Source: Shigella phage KPS64. Taken from it: DNA of 64,000 nt. Below the pieces are notes generated by a model. It was given only the letters and a program-made list of their open reading frames with translations, did no database searches and was not told where the DNA came from. Shown piece after piece: positions 33,809-40,382 of the stretch (position 1 is its first letter; every line of letters begins with the position of its first letter). The position numbers and the translations under genes were made by a program. Where the stretch lies: sequence record MK562502. One strand, 5' to 3'.

Positions 33809-33884
33809 TTGGAGTATCGGAAGGGACTCGAACCCTCATAAGCCTGTTTTGCAGACAGGAACATAACCATTTCTGACACCGACA
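33809..33884 (-). tRNA. tRNA-Cys (anticodon GCA)
   Basis: T-arm aaggg-ACTCGAA-ccctc, 7-bp acceptor, anticodon loop CTGCAAA, encoded CCA. Confidence 0.7.
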
Positions 33885-33890
33885 CATAAT

Positions 33891-33983
33891 TTGGAGGAAG
33901 ATACCAGACTTGAACTGGTACGCCGATTTCTCGGTTACTGGCAGTTTAGCAAACTGCTCCCTTACCTTTTAGGGTTAATCTTC
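33891..33983 (-). tRNA. tRNA-Ser (anticodon GCT), long variable arm
   Basis: Perfect acceptor ggaagat/atcttcc, T-arm accag/ctggt, anticodon loop TTGCTAA. Confidence 0.7.
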
Positions 33984-33985
33984 CA

Positions 33986-34783
33986 TTATTTGTTCAGAGC
34001 TTCTTTCATCTCTGGAGTTGCGATAGTATCAATCACACCAGTTTTACATGAATCATCAAACCAGCTTGGTAGAACATTCGCAAGGAAACCATTAATATTT
34101 GTTTTCAGGTATTCTGCAATCAGTGCTGCTTCATCTGCAATCATCTGAGTTACTTCATTAGCATATGCAGTAATCTTTGCAATACCATCATTAATCGCTG
34201 TAACGGCCTGTGTAGCGAGTTCAGAGATTGTATCTAGTCCTTGGTCGATTGCATCTTGCAAATCGCTTAGAACGCTATTTACAGCGTCTATGGAGGTATT
34301 AATCAAATCCATCGCTTTGTTACCGTACTCGGTAGCTACGCCCATGATACCACTAAACGGTGTACATCCAACCTGTTCACCTGCTGCTCCCATAACGTTA
34401 GAGTAACCTTTAGCTACTTGCATACGTTGTGAAAACTCATCTACAGACTTTTGTCCATACTCAGTAAGTGTACTTGTCGTTGAAGTTGTACTTCCAAGGC
34501 TTGTTGTGAAGCTTCCTAATAAGGCTGTTGTCAGTCCAGCAGCAACTAAAATCTGTTGTGTAGCTGGGTCTGTTACAGAACTAATCGAGTTAACTAATGA
34601 TTGAGAGGCAGCTACAGTACCACCAAGAACTGCTGCACCAGTAATAAGAGGGTTTGAGAAACCATTACCAGTTTTAAGGAGATTAAAAATCTCTTTACTT
34701 TGTTCTGTCATCTCTTTCATTATGCACCTATAAAGTTGGTAGCCCATCGGGATTTGAACCCTGTTCTCATGTTTTTCAGACAC
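33986..34783 (-). CDS. hypothetical A/T/S-rich protein (265 aa) embedded in the tRNA array
   Basis: ORF flanked on both sides by tRNA genes. Confidence 0.45.
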   Translation of the reverse strand: MSEKHENRVQIPMGYQLYRCIMKEMTEQSKEIFNLLKTGNGFSNPLITGAAVLGGTVAASQSLVNSISSVTDPATQQILVAAGLTTALLGSFTTSLGSTTSTTSTLTEYGQKSVDEFSQRMQVAKGYSNVMGAAGEQVGCTPFSGIMGVATEYGNKAMDLINTSIDAVNSVLSDLQDAIDQGLDTISELATQAVTAINDGIAKITAYANEVTQMIADEAALIAEYLKTNINGFLANVLPSWFDDSCKTGVIDTIATPEMKEALNK

Positions 34784-34813
34784 GCGCTTTAACCATATAA
34801 GCTAATTGAGCTA
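34737..34813 (-). tRNA. tRNA-like gene, probable tRNA-Phe (anticodon GAA), weak T-stem
   Basis: Anticodon arm cgtgt-CTGAAAA-acatg and CCA end are clean, but the T-stem has only 3 GC pairs and the D-arm is irregular. Confidence 0.4.
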
Positions 34814-34819
34814 TTAAAT

Positions 34820-34895
34820 TGGGGTGACCTACGGGAATCGAACCCGTATAGACCATGTTCACAGCATGGGTCATTATCCATTTATGATAAGGCCA
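34820..34895 (-). tRNA. tRNA-His (anticodon GTG)
   Basis: Acceptor, D-stem tcat/atga, anticodon stem ccatg/catgg, loop CTGTGAA, T-arm acggg/cccgt. Confidence 0.7.
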
Positions 34896-34927
34896 CATTT
34901 AAGGACTCTCGTAAGAACCCTTAGAAG

Positions 34928-35003
34928 TGGCAGCAGTATAAGGATTTGAACCTTAATCTTTCAGCTTCAGAGGCTGGAGCATTGCCAGTTATGCTATACT
35001 GCT
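34928..35003 (-). tRNA. tRNA-Gln (anticodon CTG)
   Basis: Perfect acceptor, D-stem gcat/atgc, loop CTCTGAA. Confidence 0.6.
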
Positions 35004-35009
35004 AATATT

Positions 35010-35088
35010 TGGTACTCCATATCGGATTCGAACCGATACATAACACAGATTTTAAATCTGGCCTCTCTGCCAATTGGAGTAATGGAGC
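35010..35088 (-). tRNA. tRNA, anticodon reads TAA (Leu?) but short variable arm
   Basis: Clean T-arm atcgg-ATTCGAA-ccgat and acceptor; anticodon register uncertain. Confidence 0.45.
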
Positions 35089-35090
35089 AT

Positions 35091-35166
35091 TGGCGGGGGA
35101 TGATGGAGTTGAACCATCTTCTTCGATTTCAAAGACCGAGGTTTTAACCGTGTAAACTAATCCCCT
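35091..35166 (-). tRNA. tRNA-Gln (anticodon TTG)
   Basis: T-arm gatgg/ccatc, D-stem gttt/aaac, loop CTTTGAA. Confidence 0.6.
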
Positions 35167-35392
35167 AACGAACTCTTGAAAGAATATATGCGTTATTACA
35201 TGTATCCTTGTTTTCTGGTAACATTGTTTCAAAGATAACTTGCTTTAGTTCTAATCCAGCAAAATTGTAGACAACTTTTCTGACTTCTAGAGGGTCAGCT
35301 TTCCAACCAACTCTGATAAAGAAAGTATCTCCAAATCTCCCTGTTTCAAGTTTGTCATCTTCTGGGTGTTTTTCAACTATAAGTCTAAACAT
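35165..35392 (-). CDS. hypothetical small protein (75 aa) within tRNA array
   Basis: ORF between tRNA genes. Confidence 0.35.
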   Translation of the reverse strand: MFRLIVEKHPEDDKLETGRFGDTFFIRVGWKADPLEVRKVVYNFAGLELKQVIFETMLPENKDTCNNAYILSRVR

Positions 35393-35410
35393 AACTCACC
35401 CCTTTAAATT

Positions 35411-35487
35411 TGGTGCAGAATAGAGGATTCGAACCCCTAACTAACAACTTCGTAGGTTGCTGCTCTGTCCATTTGAACTAATTCTGC
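35411..35487 (-). tRNA. tRNA-Arg (anticodon ACG)
   Basis: Perfect acceptor gcagaat/attctgc, loop CTACGAA. Confidence 0.65.
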
Positions 35488-35649
35488 AATATCCTTTTGA
35501 GATTCCTGTCTAGCTCTCTTCTTATCTCTTCTGAGAAAGCGTTTACGATGGTCTGTACGCCATTTGTAATAATCTTCTTCACCATCATGTGCTGCACAGC
35601 AGCCACAACTTGCAATTTCAACTTTACCATGTCTACCATAAGGCTTCAT
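35437..35649 (-). CDS. hypothetical basic Cys-rich small protein (70 aa)
   Basis: ORF whose 3' end overlaps tRNA-Arg; real start/stop uncertain. Confidence 0.25.
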   Translation of the reverse strand: MKPYGRHGKVEIASCGCCAAHDGEEDYYKWRTDHRKRFLRRDKKRARQESQKDIAELVQMDRAATYEVVS

Positions 35650-35665
35650 AGGAATCTCCTAAAAT

Positions 35666-35743
35666 TGGTGTTCCAAGACGGATTCGAACCGTCACTAATA
35701 CAAGGTTTGAGCTTGCATCCTCTGCCAATTGGGATACTGGAAC
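35666..35743 (-). tRNA. tRNA, anticodon reads CAA (Leu?) but short variable arm
   Basis: T-arm gacgg/ccgtc and acceptor clean; D-arm paralogous to the tRNA at 35010. Confidence 0.45.
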
Positions 35744-35744
35744 T

Positions 35745-35819
35745 TGGTACTCGCTGAAGGACTTGAACCTTCTTCACCAACTTGTAAGGATGGGGCTTTA
35801 CCATATAAACTAAGCGAGC
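35745..35819 (-). tRNA. tRNA-Val (anticodon TAC)
   Basis: T-arm gaagg/ccttc, loop CTTACAA. Confidence 0.6.
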
Positions 35820-35914
35820 TTTGAAGAGGTCTGAAGCTGTGCCGCTAACTCAACTCCGTGGAATTTGTTACGGTCTTCAGTTGACTCAAGCGGTCTTTCA
35901 CTTGACCTCAAAAT

Positions 35915-35991
35915 TGGTGCTGCTCACAGGACTCGAACCTGCATCTCCATCCTTACAAGGGATGTGCAATAGCCAATTATACGAAAGCAGC
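35915..35991 (-). tRNA. tRNA-Thr (anticodon TGT)
   Basis: Anticodon stem catcc/ggatg, loop CTTGTAA. Confidence 0.6.
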
Positions 35992-35997
35992 ATTATT

Positions 35998-36072
35998 TGG
36001 AGCATCCAGAGGGAATCGAACCCTCAACCTCAGTTTGGAAGACTGTAATTTTCCCATTTAAACTATGGATGC
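35998..36072 (-). tRNA. tRNA-Gly (anticodon TCC)
   Basis: Perfect acceptor gcatcca/tggatgc, loop CTTCCAA. Confidence 0.65.
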
Positions 36073-36078
36073 ACTAAT

Positions 36079-36154
36079 TGGTGGAGAAGCAGGGAATTGA
36101 ACCCTGTACTTAAGTTTGCAAAACTTACGTTTTAACCATGTAAACTACATCCCC
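36079..36154 (-). tRNA. tRNA-Ala (anticodon TGC)
   Basis: D-stem gttt/aaac, anticodon stem taagt/actta, loop TTTGCAA. Confidence 0.65.
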
Positions 36155-36160
36155 ATTGTT

Positions 36161-36236
36161 TGGTACAGGTGGAGGGAATTGAACCCATCGTCTTACTGAT
36201 TAAGAGTCAGCCGCATAACCATTTTGCTACACCTGC
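36161..36236 (-). tRNA. tRNA-Lys (anticodon CTT), weak T-stem
   Basis: Loop CTCTTAA; T-arm gggTTCAATTccc with 3 GC pairs, paralogous to the tRNA at 37640. Confidence 0.5.
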
Positions 36237-36243
36237 ATTAATT

Positions 36244-36321
36244 TGGTAGGAGACAAGGGATTCGAACCCTCAAACACCAACTTCTAAGGATGGTAGGTTT
36301 ACCAATTACCGTCAATCTCCC
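36244..36321 (-). tRNA. tRNA, anticodon reads TAG (Leu?) but short variable arm
   Basis: T-arm and CCA end clear; anticodon register uncertain. Confidence 0.4.
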
Positions 36322-36576
36322 ATTAAATCTTTGTAGAGAACTGCTAAGACGCCAAAGCAACAATGGTATCAAATGCCTTAACAATTCTCTAAAAAGACCT
36401 ATTGGCCTCTGCATAGTCTTGCTTAATCCGGTGACTAGAACCTTTGGAGAGCTTGATACTATCTCTTCTCCGTGACACCTACTAGGTGCTTTACCAGTGC
36501 CGTGTACGCCAATACACGAAGAGGAAACCTGAAACACTTGCTCGAACAAATAGTCTCAGCTTTAAATCTTATTAGG

Positions 36577-36664
36577 CGGTAGATAAAGGAGTCGAACCCT
36601 CACCGTATCTCTACAATGGCAATAGTTTTCAAGACTATTTGGCTTCCATTAGCCGCTACCTACC
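36577..36664 (-). tRNA. tRNA-Ser (anticodon TGA), long variable arm
   Basis: Acceptor ggtaggt/atctacc, anticodon stem atagt/actat, loop CTTGAAA, about 20-nt variable arm. Confidence 0.6.
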
Positions 36665-36677
36665 CCTAATAAGACTT

Positions 36678-36760
36678 TGGCATGGGACGGAGGATTCGAA
36701 CCCCTTTGAGTAAGTTTTGGAGGCTTACGCACATGCCTTAGTGTCTTAACATCGTCCCAT
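36678..36760 (-). tRNA. tRNA, possibly Trp (anticodon CCA); about 4 nt longer than standard
   Basis: Perfect acceptor atgggac/gtcccat; loop CTCCAAA candidate; extra length unexplained. Confidence 0.45.
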
Positions 36761-36925
36761 ACTATATTTCGAAGCTTACCCTGTTATCTCAACACTGTCA
36801 AGCTTCTTCTCAGATTATTTACATGTTCTGGAAAACATGAGATACAGACCACCTCCTTATGAGATTGACTCTTTCAAGTCAATGCGGAGACCCATAAAGG
36901 TCGTCATAGTAATCTGCTAACTAAT

Positions 36926-37045
36926 TGGCAGTCAAGGTAGGAGTCGAACCTACTTACTCTTGAGGGAGCTACCCTCGGCAACTTTCCGACTTTCGTTTAT
37001 CTCTTAACGCGTATCTAAGATAACTTACTCGTGTTGTCTTGACCA
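36926..37045 (-). ncRNA. 120-nt tRNA-like RNA (117 nt without CCA): terminal stem plus canonical T-arm, extra internal hairpins
   Basis: CCA end, T-arm gtagg-AGTCGAA-cctac and 7-bp terminal stem agtcaag/cttgacc are present, but about 40 nt too long for a tRNA. Confidence 0.4.
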
Positions 37046-37052
37046 TTAAAAT

Positions 37053-37128
37053 TGGCACTCCGTATAGGACTCGAACCTATATATGAACTGTTTAGAAGAC
37101 AGTTGCCTATCCTTTAGACTAACGGAGC
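37053..37128 (-). tRNA. tRNA-Arg (anticodon TCT)
   Basis: Anticodon stem actgt/acagt, loop CTTCTAA. Confidence 0.65.
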
Positions 37129-37404
37129 ATTAATATTTTAAAGAGCACTCATTGCATTTAAGCCAAGCCCCTTAAGGGATGCTCTTTAGAATATTGCCCA
37201 CTTTATTAATCATACCGTGGGCTAGTACGCCAAATTCTTTAACAGGGGGTTGGAAGACCCTGCTGGTGTTTAGCCTATTAAGCTACTGCCAGAAAAACAT
37301 TATCGTTTGCATTTATTTTTAAGTTTTTAAAATAGACGCTACGCTAACGAAAACTAAGGTTATCTTAAAGTGGTCACATCTGAATGTCAACAACTTTATG
37401 AAAT

Positions 37405-37479
37405 TGGTTGTAGGTGAGGGTATCGAACCCTCTTCTAACGGTTATCAGCCGTTTGCATTACCATTTATGCTAACCCACA
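37405..37479 (-). tRNA. tRNA-Ile (anticodon GAT)
   Basis: D-stem gcat/atgc, anticodon stem aacgg/ccgtt, loop CTGATAA. Confidence 0.7.
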
Positions 37480-37481
37480 AT

Positions 37482-37558
37482 TGGAGGTTCAGATGGGAAT
37501 CGAACCCACATTCATAGGGCTTATGAAACCCTTGCATTACCTTATCTGCGACTGAACC
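37482..37558 (-). tRNA. tRNA-Met (anticodon CAT)
   Basis: Perfect acceptor ggttcag/ctgaacc, loop TTCATAA. Confidence 0.6.
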
Positions 37559-37639
37559 ATTATAAGTTGCCCCTTTGTAGAGAACTGATTGAGTGGGTGT
37601 TTCCAGCCGCGCATGTGTTCTTCAGTTAAGGGGCGAATT

Positions 37640-37715
37640 TGGTAGAAGTGGAGGGATTCGAACCCGTCGCCTGTCAGATTAAAAGTCTGCCGCATCACCA
37701 TTCTGCTACACTTCC
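37640..37715 (-). tRNA. tRNA-Lys (anticodon TTT), weak T-stem
   Basis: Loop CTTTTAA; T-arm gggTTCGAATccc. Confidence 0.5.
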
Positions 37716-37909
37716 ATTAAATCATCTTTGCAGTAACCTACGCAAACCTTGCTAAAGGGTTTGTAGAGTCATCTCTTATAAGCTAATCTAGAATCATGCT
37801 CAAGAGACTCTTCGGCACTCATGGGACGACTGGTTAGCTCCATAAGTCACTGCAAAGAGGATTACCAGACCGTATTTATCTTAAGTGCTCCCATTACACC
37901 AACACGCCG

Positions 37910-37990
37910 TAACGTGTGAAGGAATCGAACCTTCGCCTTTTCTTTACCAGAGAAATAGATTGTTTATTGTTTGCTGTAAACGGTCTTCTG
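37910..37990 (-). pseudogene. tRNA-like remnant: T-arm and anticodon-arm (loop CTGGTAA, anticodon GGT) without a pairing acceptor stem
   Basis: T-arm gaagg-AATCGAA-ccttc and stem tttct/agaaa found; no 5' acceptor partner. Confidence 0.3.
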
Positions 37991-38139
37991 TAAAATTGTT
38001 GGAACCAGACCAAGTTTTAAATTTTTCAAATTAAATTGGCTTGAAATATTAAAATTGCTTGCTGTATTTGGTCTTCTGCTCCTTTAAAGAATACTCGTAA
38101 GAACTCTTTAAGGGAGGGGCTAAAAAGCCCTCTCAAATT

Positions 38140-38216
38140 TGGCGGTTACGAAGGGATTCGAACCCTCATCATCCTCCGTGACAGGGAGGTATTTTGACCA
38201 GTTAAACTACATAACC
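38140..38216 (-). tRNA. tRNA-Asp (anticodon GTC)
   Basis: Anticodon stem cctcc/ggagg, loop CTGTCAC. Confidence 0.65.
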
Positions 38217-38222
38217 TTTATT

Positions 38223-38307
38223 TGGTGCGCCCATCTGGACTCGAACCAGAAACCTCGAAAGGGACAGTTTTACAGACTGCTGCATTGACCATCTCTGCCA
38301 TGAACGC
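38223..38307 (-). tRNA. tRNA-Tyr (anticodon GTA), long variable arm
   Basis: 85 nt; loop CTGTAAA; variable hairpin. Confidence 0.6.
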
Positions 38308-38316
38308 ATTTAAAAT

Positions 38317-38393
38317 TGGCGGTTAGTCAGGGATTCGAACCCTGTACCATTCGGTTAACAGCCGACCGCACATGCCTTATGTGCTTCCTAACC
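38317..38393 (-). tRNA. tRNA-Asn (anticodon GTT)
   Basis: T-arm caggg/ccctg, loop CTGTTAA. Confidence 0.6.
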
Positions 38394-38476
38394 ATATTAG
38401 TATTACCAGACCGTATCTTTTCATTTTTTCCTATAAAAAATTTTAAGTGTTTGCTGTAAACGGTCTTCTGTAAATT

Positions 38477-38553
38477 TGGAGGCGGGTGTAGGAGTCGAAC
38501 CTACCGATAACATGCTAATGAGACATGTGAGACACCCTTTCTCTATACCCGCA
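38477..38553 (-). tRNA. tRNA with anticodon CAT (Met, fMet or lysidine-Ile)
   Basis: D-stem gaga/tctc, anticodon stem catgt/gcatg, loop CTCATTA. Confidence 0.55.
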
Positions 38554-38640
38554 ATTCTTAATGACCAGACCAAATCTTTTTTGGATTTCTATGCGCGAAA
38601 TTGAAAAGTTTGTTTGCTGTAATTGGTCTTCTGTCAAAAC

Positions 38641-38718
38641 TGGCATTCCCGAAGGGACTTGAACCCTCAAACCACACCTTGAAAGGGTGTTGACTTTACC
38701 TAATTTGTCTACGGGAAT
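38641..38718 (-). tRNA. tRNA-Glu (anticodon TTC)
   Basis: Perfect acceptor attcccg/cgggaat, anticodon stem acacc/ggtgt, loop CTTTCAA. Confidence 0.65.
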
Positions 38719-38724
38719 ATAATT

Positions 38725-38801
38725 TGGTCTCCATTGAAGGACTTGAACCTTCGGCCTTACCGCCCCAAACGGAACGCTCTACCAAGCTGAGCTAAATGGA
38801 G
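38725..38801 (-). tRNA. tRNA-Pro (anticodon TGG)
   Basis: Perfect acceptor, D-stem gctc/gagc, loop TTTGGGG. Confidence 0.65.
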
Positions 38802-38966: not shown

Positions 38967-40382
38967 TTACCAATCGTAGCGTTCAACCATTACTGCTTTG
39001 AGCATTACGCTGATAGGGTCAAACTTCTCACCACCAAGCAAAGCTTTTAAAGTGGCTGGAGAGAAACCAGATACCATCGCTACACCGTTATCCTTTACAG
39101 ACACTTCGCAAGTACCGTTACGGTTTGCTAAGTACCAGAATACCAGTTGTGGCATCTCATATCCAGCTTTCTTGTACTTTTCTTGAATTGCTTCAAAGTT
39201 AGTACGACCATCTGCTCCATCAACCTGATTAAACTGCATATCAGAGAAGATGATAAGCTTACTAGGCATCTCTTTCTGAGTCAAGTTGTTTTTAACACCA
39301 ATCTCAAGGATTCTTGCAAAAGCAGCTTGTAGGTCAGTTGAACCATACTCTACATGACTCTTCACTTGACGTAAGCGAGTCTGCAAATCACCACTCAATG
39401 TGATGAAGTGAGGTCTGCTAGAGTAAACCATCAATTCATCTTTAAAGCAACCTGTGTTACGTTCTGAAACGTACAGGGCTAAAGATACACCAATGTCTAG
39501 CGCTGTAACAGAACCATGTCGCTCCCAAGTCATAGAGGAAGATACATCTGCCATGCACAGAATGTTTTCACCATCTTTCATCCAGTTTGGTAAAGCTTTC
39601 CACTGTTCATTTGCAACGGTTGCATTACCGTAACCAACTGACTTTGTAATGTCATAAGGGTAGACTGCACCAGCATTAATCTTTGTCTCACCTTTAGTCA
39701 GTGCTGCAACGTATGCTGCATAACGCTCACCATCTTTACGACTGAAGAGTTTTTGATAACGTGCAGCAGCCAGTGAAGGAAGCTTGCTGTAATCAATCTC
39801 TCCAAACTCGTTTGCTGAAATCTTTTGTTCAACAGTGTCGGACAGTGCTGACAGAAGAACTCGATACTGCTTCTCTGAAAGATTTGCAAACTTACAGAAA
39901 CGACGAACAAAACGCATATGTCGTGATTTTACTCGTGGTAACCACTTTGCTGCCAGAGCCGATGTTGCAGGGTCTAACAGTGCCGATTCTAAATGCTTGA
40001 AAGCATCTGTTTCATAACGTGTACCAACAAAGATTTTAAAGTCATCATAACGACCTAAATCAGAAATCTTGTCCATGATACGTAACACTTGGAACTCATC
40101 AAGAATCCCGTCAGAGATTGCTTTAGTAAGAGTATAACGGAACGCTTTACGCTCACCCATACCTTCTCGTGCATCTCGCATATGTAACAGGATTCGAACT
40201 GCTACATCAATATCTTCTCGCATTGCCTTGTAAAACAAGTTTGGAAGAACTTCTACATTTGTTCTGCTTGAACCAGCAGCTTTGTAGAAATCTACCAGTG
40301 CAGACATTGAAGAGGTGTGGTTAACAGCACCGTTTTCAGTTAAACCTGCATGTAAATGCGAGTGCTTAAATAATTCGCTCAT
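38967..40382 (-). CDS. vWA-domain protein with MIDAS motif; possibly TROVE/Ro60-like (471 aa)
   Basis: CMADVSSSMTW matches a DxSxS MIDAS motif at about residue 280; helical N-terminal half; adjacent to tRNA array. Confidence 0.45.
   Translation of the reverse strand: MSELFKHSHLHAGLTENGAVNHTSSMSALVDFYKAAGSSRTNVEVLPNLFYKAMREDIDVAVRILLHMRDAREGMGERKAFRYTLTKAISDGILDEFQVLRIMDKISDLGRYDDFKIFVGTRYETDAFKHLESALLDPATSALAAKWLPRVKSRHMRFVRRFCKFANLSEKQYRVLLSALSDTVEQKISANEFGEIDYSKLPSLAAARYQKLFSRKDGERYAAYVAALTKGETKINAGAVYPYDITKSVGYGNATVANEQWKALPNWMKDGENILCMADVSSSMTWERHGSVTALDIGVSLALYVSERNTGCFKDELMVYSSRPHFITLSGDLQTRLRQVKSHVEYGSTDLQAAFARILEIGVKNNLTQKEMPSKLIIFSDMQFNQVDGADGRTNFEAIQEKYKKAGYEMPQLVFWYLANRNGTCEVSVKDNGVAMVSGFSPATLKALLGGEKFDPISVMLKAVMVERYDW

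Follow-up and report, generated by a model that had tools for sequence, protein, structure and literature searches.

Short-armed tRNA-Leu genes in the tRNA cluster of Shigella phage KPS64 and their probable charging by the host synthetase

The 64,000-nucleotide (nt) stretch of Shigella phage KPS64 analysed here (sequence record MK562502; hereafter the window) carries 26 tRNA genes on its minus strand, between positions 33810 and 38801 by ARAGORN, and three of these have leucine anticodons but lack the long variable arm of bacterial tRNA-Leu. The three are probably working type I tRNA-Leu species, leucylated by the host's leucyl-tRNA synthetase (LeuRS), a reading drawn from the observed gene structure, conservation, covariation, distribution and codon usage. 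The genes themselves are already known, annotated as tRNA-Leu and ordinary for phages, and short-armed tRNA-Leu as a kind is already known from animal mitochondria and Streptomyces. The mild surprise lies in the mismatch between textbook statements and phage genomes. The tRNA genes are called by ARAGORN and by the Rfam family RF00005, and the features in question are the following.

33810..38801 (-), tRNA cluster, 26 genes; ARAGORN, Rfam, per-tRNA segment table, syntenic annotated clusters in phages FelixO1 and BSwM KMM2
35010..35088 (-), tRNA-Leu(UAA); 79 nt with encoded CCA, body 76 nt; ARAGORN, Rfam 46.9 bits
35666..35743 (-), tRNA-Leu(CAA); 78 nt with encoded CCA, body 75 nt; ARAGORN, Rfam 44.0 bits
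36244..36321 (-), tRNA-Leu(UAG); 78 nt with encoded CCA, body 75 nt; ARAGORN, Rfam 40.0 bits

Architecture of the three tRNA-Leu genes

The initial annotation had placed three tRNAs with the anticodons TAA, CAA and TAG at these positions; the ARAGORN calls match it exactly, and Rfam agrees. Each gene belongs to the tRNA family RF00005, scoring above its gathering score of 29 bits and presenting a cloverleaf with a 7-base-pair (bp) acceptor stem, three arms, a T-loop and U33. The cloverleaf segments are compared with those of E. coli K-12 leuZ (UAA), leuX (CAA), leuW (UAG) and leuQPV (CAG), the leuQPV reference sequence being 100% identical in all 5,426 E. coli genomes. In the phage genes the variable region comprises 7, 6 and 5 nt (UAA, CAA and UAG species, respectively), against 13-15 nt in the four E. 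coli references, which bears out the earlier remark that the long variable arm is absent. A type II tRNA has a variable arm of more than 10 nt that forms a stem-loop. None of the three has one; each joins a Leu anticodon and a Leu-type body to a short, unpaired variable region, the make-up of a type I tRNA-Leu. Judged by sequence, the phage trio is not type II, yet is Leu by every other criterion. Within the same cluster, the type II tRNA-Ser (93 and 90 nt) and tRNA-Tyr (85 nt) keep long arms, the segment table giving variable regions of 19-21 nt for the two Ser and 13 nt for Tyr. The encoded CCA is present in nearly all 26 cluster tRNAs.

The individual species are built on one plan. In tRNA-Leu(UAA), G1.U72 ends the acceptor stem and A73 follows; the 3-bp D-stem CUC/GAG encloses the 11-nt D-loop CAAUUGGCAGA, the anticodon loop UUUAAAA is the same as in E. 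coli leuZ, and the variable region GUUAUGU ends in U48. tRNA-Leu(CAA) has G1-C72, A73, a 3-bp D-stem UCC/GGA with the same 11-nt D-loop as the UAA species, the anticodon loop CUCAAAC and the 6-nt variable region AUUAGU, again with U48 last. tRNA-Leu(UAG) has G1.U72, A73, the anticodon loop CUUAGAA and the 5-nt variable region UGUUU, likewise with U48 last. The D-arm together with position 26 measures 18 nt in the UAA and CAA species and in the Leu(UAG) of phage BF23, as in the four E. coli tRNA-Leu, and these phage D-arms share a layout of 3-bp stem and 11-nt loop xAAUUGGyAxA. In the window Leu(UAG) the same segment measures 19 nt, one more than the E. coli/T5 form, and its stem register is ambiguous. 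The discriminator is A73 in all three, and the core nucleotides U8/A14, A15/U48, G18G19 and the A after position 20 are present throughout, with their pairing in three dimensions predicted. The initial annotation had singled out A73 and the D-loop as identity elements to be checked, and both are in place.

The E. coli type II tRNA-Leu resemble the phage trio in their anticodons, in A73, in the 3-bp D-stem and 11-nt D-loop AAUYGGUAGA, in U48 and, for leuZ, in G1.U72. They differ in the 13-15-nt arm and in G59, whereas the phage genes have 5-7 nt, A59 in the T-loop, AU-rich stems and, in the UAG species, A37. In leuW that position is occupied by G37, the m1G37 site, which protects the reading frame on codons starting with C. 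The anticodon stem of Leu(UAG) contains a U30.U40 mismatch that is common to BF23 and one metagenomic relative and is repaired in FelixO1. This stem is fully rewritten with pairing kept (window CCATC/GTTGG, FelixO1 TCTCG/CGAGA, BF23 CCGTC/GTCGG), which argues for function. When folded as single sequences, the UAA and CAA species regain their acceptor, anticodon and T arms (z ~ -2.2).

As one of two alternatives, the initial annotation considered that the anticodon register is off, in which case the genes would be ordinary type I tRNAs of another isotype. Their type I length suits this reading, and in the near-identical phage Sf14 the isotype score of Leu(UAG) lies near those of Ile2 and Lys. 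It can nevertheless be given almost no credence. In each gene paired stems enclose a 7-nt loop in which the Leu anticodon is framed by U33 and A37; the cloverleaves that ARAGORN draws for all three are clean, with anticodon loops of 7 nt, and its register agrees with that of Rfam, whose residue-level alignment of the 35010-35088 tRNA has UAA at the anticodon position. The tRNA body speaks against a shifted register as well, since it combines the Leu-specific D-arm (3-bp stem, 11-nt loop) with A15/U48, and the same D-arm recurs in the short tRNAs of unrelated phages, ~85-90% of which, among the matches listed, bear Leu anticodons. For the three Sf14 species, Leu obtains the highest score among the tRNAscan-SE isotype models, namely 67.4 (UAG), 49.1 (CAA) and 60.2 (UAA) (PMC12482277). 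The other alternative, compact Leu tRNAs, is the one favoured by the anticodons, the Leu-type body and this isotype ranking.

Occurrence in FelixO1-like and T5-like phages

The window belongs to a virulent FelixO1-like phage of the Mooglevirus type. Its tRNA region is 92-98% identical to that of Moogle-group FelixO1-like myoviruses, where 'tRNA-Leu (x3)' is annotated in each case: BSwM KMM2 (97.7%), the Shigella phages Sf13-Sf19 and the Citrobacter phages Michonne, Mordin and Moogle. Across the FelixO1-like phages (FelixO1, wV8, Moogle, Michonne, Mordin, Sf13-Sf19 and BSwM KMM2) the Leu genes are 95-100% identical, syntenic and annotated as tRNA-Leu, and each of the three window genes is 95-100% identical to an annotated tRNA-Leu in ~260-350 phage records. 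The Leu(UAA) gene is 100% identical to the annotated tRNA-Leu of Shigella phage Sf13 and Citrobacter phage Mordin, and the Leu(CAA) gene to that of wV8, Moogle, Michonne and FelixO1. In the FelixO1 genome paper, Leu TAG, CAA and TAA have the Cove scores 52.2, 46.2 and 57.9, respectively, and none is flagged as a pseudogene (PMC3185647). The missing long arm goes unmentioned both in that paper and in the Sf14 tRNA paper (PMC12482277).

The closest relative is Citrobacter phage BSwM KMM2, with 97.7% identity over the cluster. Its complete genome has 25 tRNAs in one cluster, three of them Leu and all three 78-79 nt long; no tRNA lies in the other 39.5 kilobases (kb), hence there is no type II Leu in this genome. 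ARAGORN finds no type II Leu gene in the window either, in line with the initial annotation, which had come upon none. The initial annotation had named a canonical type II gene elsewhere in the genome as a refuting find; judged by the window and the BSwM KMM2 genome, there is none. With E. coli LeuRS as the query, tblastn (E <= 10) returns no homologue of the enzyme, either from the window or from the BSwM KMM2 genome.

A second group of coliphages presents the same architecture. In T5-like phages, BF23 tRNAL1 and the T5 Leu genes (UAG and UAA) are 77 nt long with a 5-nt variable region, A73 and a Leu-type D-arm; BF23 tRNAL1 and T5 tRNA-Leu(UAG) are ~84% identical to the window Leu(UAG). The T5-like genome differs from the window in having not three but two Leu genes (UAA and UAG, 77 nt each), the sole ones of its tRNA region, and in a D-arm of the E. 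coli 18-nt form, one nt shorter than that of the window Leu(UAG). According to the BF23 GenBank record, the 77-nt Leu(UAG) homologue given a CUA anticodon is an effective amber suppressor, which indicates that a close homologue is charged and used by E. coli ribosomes. The BF23 tRNA region also contains, among its tRNAs, genes labelled 'tRNA-like RNA' or 'stable RNA with unknown functions' (L001 5262-5335, 6129-6253 and 8574-8934).

Conservation and covariation of short-armed tRNA-Leu

Short-armed tRNA-Leu form a recognizable class. They are collected with a pattern that places a Leu-type D-loop 29-32 nt before the T-loop, a spacing that excludes type II, and that holds no anticodon information. 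The scan returns at least 120 loci in the viral and at least 120 in the bacterial/archaeal genome collection, counts that speak to presence and not to frequency. Among the matches listed, ARAGORN assigns Leu anticodons to ~85-90% of the pattern-bearing tRNAs, which are 73-80 nt long. An alignment of 134 sequences combines 129 viral short Leu tRNAs, less than 80% identical to one another, with the three from the window and those of BF23 and FelixO1. A14, A15, G18 and U48 are invariant in it, and conservation reaches at least 90% for U8, G19 and A73; the scan pattern included neither U48 nor A73. RNAalifold derives from this alignment a cloverleaf with a 3-bp D-stem and double compensatory changes in all 20 pairs. 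Paired cells amount to 95.9%, compared with 57.1% in shuffled alignments (0/500 reach the observed value) and 37-47% when the partners are slid by 1-3 columns, and the covariation score is 1.00, compared with 0.24 in shuffles and at most 0.21 with slid partners.

In two details the class can be set beside the window genes. A G1.U72 wobble ends the acceptor stem in 57/134 short-armed phage Leu tRNAs (alignment columns 2 and 81), including the UAA and UAG species here, and is found in leuZ too. The 7-nt (UAA) and 6-nt (CAA) variable regions exceed the class mode of 5 nt.

These data bear on whether the genes might be decayed or non-translational, that is, pseudogenes or tRNA-like decoys for host enzymes that target tRNAs. 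One T5-like homologue is labelled as a pseudogene in its record, the UAG species combines a weak fold with a stem mismatch, and an anti-defence role has been proposed for tRNA arrays (PMC12803027). Decay or a decoy role is very unlikely all the same, in view of the 95-100% conservation in ~260-350 phage records and the compensatory changes in every helix at class level. The UAG anticodon stem is rewritten between the window and FelixO1 with its pairing maintained, and the encoded CCA and the identity nucleotides are conserved. The BF23 homologue acts as an amber suppressor, and codon usage fits the three anticodons (PMC12482277).

Frequency and leucine specificity of arm loss

The frequency of short arms is estimated by a census of viral contigs with three generic T-loop probes, covering 328 loci, 2.8 megabases (Mb) and 1,325 tRNAs. 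Genes are counted once when identical, and those of at most 80 nt are scored as short. The second fraction in each line leaves out tRNAs with the T-loop of the probe.

Leu: short 43/114 (38%); minus tRNAs with probe T-loop 16/58 (28%)
Ser: short 4/84; minus tRNAs with probe T-loop 2/42
Tyr: short 1/41; minus tRNAs with probe T-loop 1/21

Short genes make up ~28-38% of the sampled phage Leu genes and 2-5% of Ser and Tyr. The difference between Leu and Ser plus Tyr is significant by Fisher's test in the full sample (p = 2e-11) and in the filtered one (16/58 vs 3/63, p = 8e-4). An early estimate of 20/27 short phage Leu genes is too high; it came from 16 loci and a probe that shared the T-loop of the window Leu genes. 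When the initial annotation called such compact tRNAs unusual, this holds in comparison with cellular tRNAs, but not among phages, where about one third of the sampled tRNA-Leu genes are short-armed. We found no paper describing short-armed tRNA-Leu as a common phage feature. The few candidate short phage tRNAs with Ser anticodons (4/84 unique) are 72-74 nt long, and a single Tyr call is at most 80 nt, in viral loci L246-L365 and from L370 onward; they may be genuinely arm-less or mis-called.

Lengths of the variable region have a bimodal distribution: one peak is at 5 nt, and the other group falls mainly within 11-17 nt. Certain pairs of short and long Leu genes are 84-88% identical outside the variable region, which implies that the arm has been lost repeatedly. 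In one such comparison (L024 vs L064), the acceptor and anticodon arms are the same, and the variable region reads GTTTT in one and TGCTCCTGTGAGCGT in the other. SerRS and TyrRS, the seryl- and tyrosyl-tRNA synthetases, check the long arm (PMC3561953). The loss from Leu, with Ser and Tyr almost always spared, would be accounted for because bacterial LeuRS needs no arm while SerRS and TyrRS use it; the indifference of LeuRS to the arm would concentrate arm loss in Leu and allow it to recur.

The same function is compatible with an arm loss that is adaptive rather than merely tolerated, either by preventing SerRS from mistaking the fast-evolving phage Leu tRNAs for Ser tRNAs or by escape from host toxins or nucleases that recognise long arms. 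Adaptive loss appears possible but rather unlikely. Its attraction is that the loss is both recurrent and specific to Leu. Factors that read long arms exist: MenT3 depends on the tRNA-Ser variable loop (PMC11541572), and SLFN11 cleaves type II tRNAs (PMC13191261). Evasion of anticodon nucleases has moreover been put forward for phage tRNAs (PMC10264068), and in two of the three genes the anticodon loop is unlike that of the host (PMC12482277). On the other side, the Ser and Tyr tRNAs of the same phage keep their arms, as do 62-72% of the sampled phage Leu genes, and relaxed constraint alone explains the pattern. To our knowledge, there is no enterobacterial factor that targets tRNA-Leu via its arm, which also counts against an adaptive loss. 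It is equally doubtful that arm loss is a recurrent selected trait with the coliphage cases in addition showing enterobacterial LeuRS to charge natural type I tRNA-Leu routinely, contrary to a published statement.

Short Leu genes also occur in bacterial genomes. Among the matches listed there are ~60 stand-alone short tRNA-Leu(UAA) in loci with at most two tRNAs (L197-L227 and others, for example L200, L202 and L211), their hosts being mainly Actinobacteria such as Nocardia, Mycobacterium, Arthrobacter and Gordonia, and a further 59 short Leu genes in bacterial tRNA arrays (at least 5 tRNAs per 8 kb). Type I tRNA-Leu on chromosomes may extend far beyond the single studied Streptomyces case.

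Proposed charging by the host LeuRS and decoding

The three tRNAs would be transcribed within the 26-tRNA cluster and processed by host enzymes. Sequence and the published E. coli rules together suggest that the host LeuRS charges them by reading A73 and the core formed by the D- and T-loops with the variable region, with U8:A14, A15:U48, G18G19 and the A after position 20, without recourse to the arm. The arm would then have been lost with the rest of the bacterial tRNA-Leu body kept. In E. coli, A73 is crucial to leucine identity, whereas neither the anticodon nor the long arm has this weight; A15-U48, G18G19 and A20a are essential as well (review PMC9976931). A passage of the same review describes truncated tRNA-Leu without anticodon and variable arms as active if A73 and the contacts of the D-loop with the T-loop are intact (PMC9976931).

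On the ribosome, the UAA species is expected to decode UUA and UUG, the CAA species UUG, and the UAG species CUA and its wobble partners. UUA, UUG and CUA are common in this phage of 39% G+C and are served by minor host tRNAs. The Leu codons in the long open reading frames (ORFs) of the window comprise TTA 26.5%, CTT 27.1%, CTG 16.8%, TTG 15.8% and CTA 8.6%. In Sf14, TTA and CTA are significantly more used by the phage than by the host (PMC12482277).

Several observations weigh against charging with leucine by the host enzyme and against the functional standing of the UAG species. Leucine charging of these three tRNAs is itself something we infer, and the note on the BF23 suppressor leaves the inserted amino acid unnamed. 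EcLeuRS, the E. coli enzyme, failed to charge S. coelicolor type I tRNA-Leu(CAA) in vitro, and the authors state that it charges only type II (PMC6614811); its C-terminal domain contacts the arm nucleotides 47f-47i (PMC6614811). For M. tuberculosis LeuRS, the arm is reported to be important (PMC3561953). The isotype scores of the Sf14 Leu(UAG) are nearly tied, with 67.4 for Leu, 65.7 for Ile2 and 63.4 for Lys (PMC12482277). In the window, the UAG species has an irregular D-arm, the U.U mismatch and the lowest Rfam score of the three, and it does not form a cloverleaf in its minimum-energy fold (z = -0.78), single-sequence folding being uninformative for this species. One GenBank record names a T5-like homologue 'tRNA-Pseudo-TAG'.

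The failure of EcLeuRS on one natural type I tRNA-Leu and the near-tied UAG scores could also be taken to mean that the genes are real tRNAs with Leu anticodons that a different host synthetase charges, so that Leu codons are partly misread. Such mischarging is scarcely probable. The E. coli Leu identity set, except the arm, is present and conserved, and systematic mistranslation of ~50% of the phage's own Leu codons would be strongly deleterious. Recognition by SerRS is unlikely without a long arm (PMC9976931), and TyrRS would find no U35, A35 being conserved.

Short-armed tRNA-Leu are also known from other settings. In Streptomyces coelicolor the type I tRNA-Leu(CAA), and in other Actinobacteria the stand-alone short tRNA-Leu(UAA), have a short 5-nt variable loop, A73 and the same D-arm motif as the UAA and CAA species of the window. 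They coexist with a bacterial-type LeuRS (PMC6614811; genome scan), and are chromosomal and rich in G+C, unlike the phage genes. In S. coelicolor, LeuRS requires a particular leucine-specific domain for type I charging and does not use A73 (PMC6614811). Animal mitochondrial tRNA-Leu share the type I architecture and A73 with the phage trio, A14 and A73 being identity elements there (PMC9976931). Mitochondrial tRNAs differ in having degenerate D- and T-loops and a dedicated LeuRS, whereas the trio keeps canonical G18G19 and UUCGAAU loops.

The common coliphages of the FelixO1 and T5 groups have no Leu tRNAs other than short-armed ones, in contrast to the 2019 claim of E. coli LeuRS charging type II alone (PMC6614811). 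If the host LeuRS charges the phage trio, these tRNAs would be natural minimal substrates for the study of leucine identity. For annotation pipelines and tRNA surveys, a short phage Leu tRNA should not be taken as a pseudogene or an error.

Neighbouring genes and other members of the cluster

The ORFs flanking the cluster encode terminase, DUF proteins and small conserved products. Directly upstream of the cluster lies a gene for 471 amino acids (aa), at 38967-40382 (-), which matches Pfam DUF2828 (9e-27) and DUF7788 (6e-44) and phrog_850 'RNA-binding protein' (7e-178); the FelixO1 record labels its counterpart 'RNA-binding protein'. As this gene is conserved beside the tRNA array, its product might act on tRNAs.

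Two small conserved ORFs are inserted between the tRNAs.

35165-35392 (-), 75 aa, phrog_14202
35437-35649 (-), 70 aa, phrog_10765; ~50-nt overlap with tRNA-Arg(ACG) at 35411-35487

The FelixO1 homologues of tRNA-Tyr (38223-38307 (-)) and tRNA-His (34820-34896 (-)) are pseudo-tRNAs according to tRNAscan-SE, as given in the FelixO1 record and paper (PMC3185647). In the window, both are called by ARAGORN; at the Rfam gathering threshold, tRNA-His at 34820-34896 is not listed and tRNA-Tyr is, with 53.3 bits.

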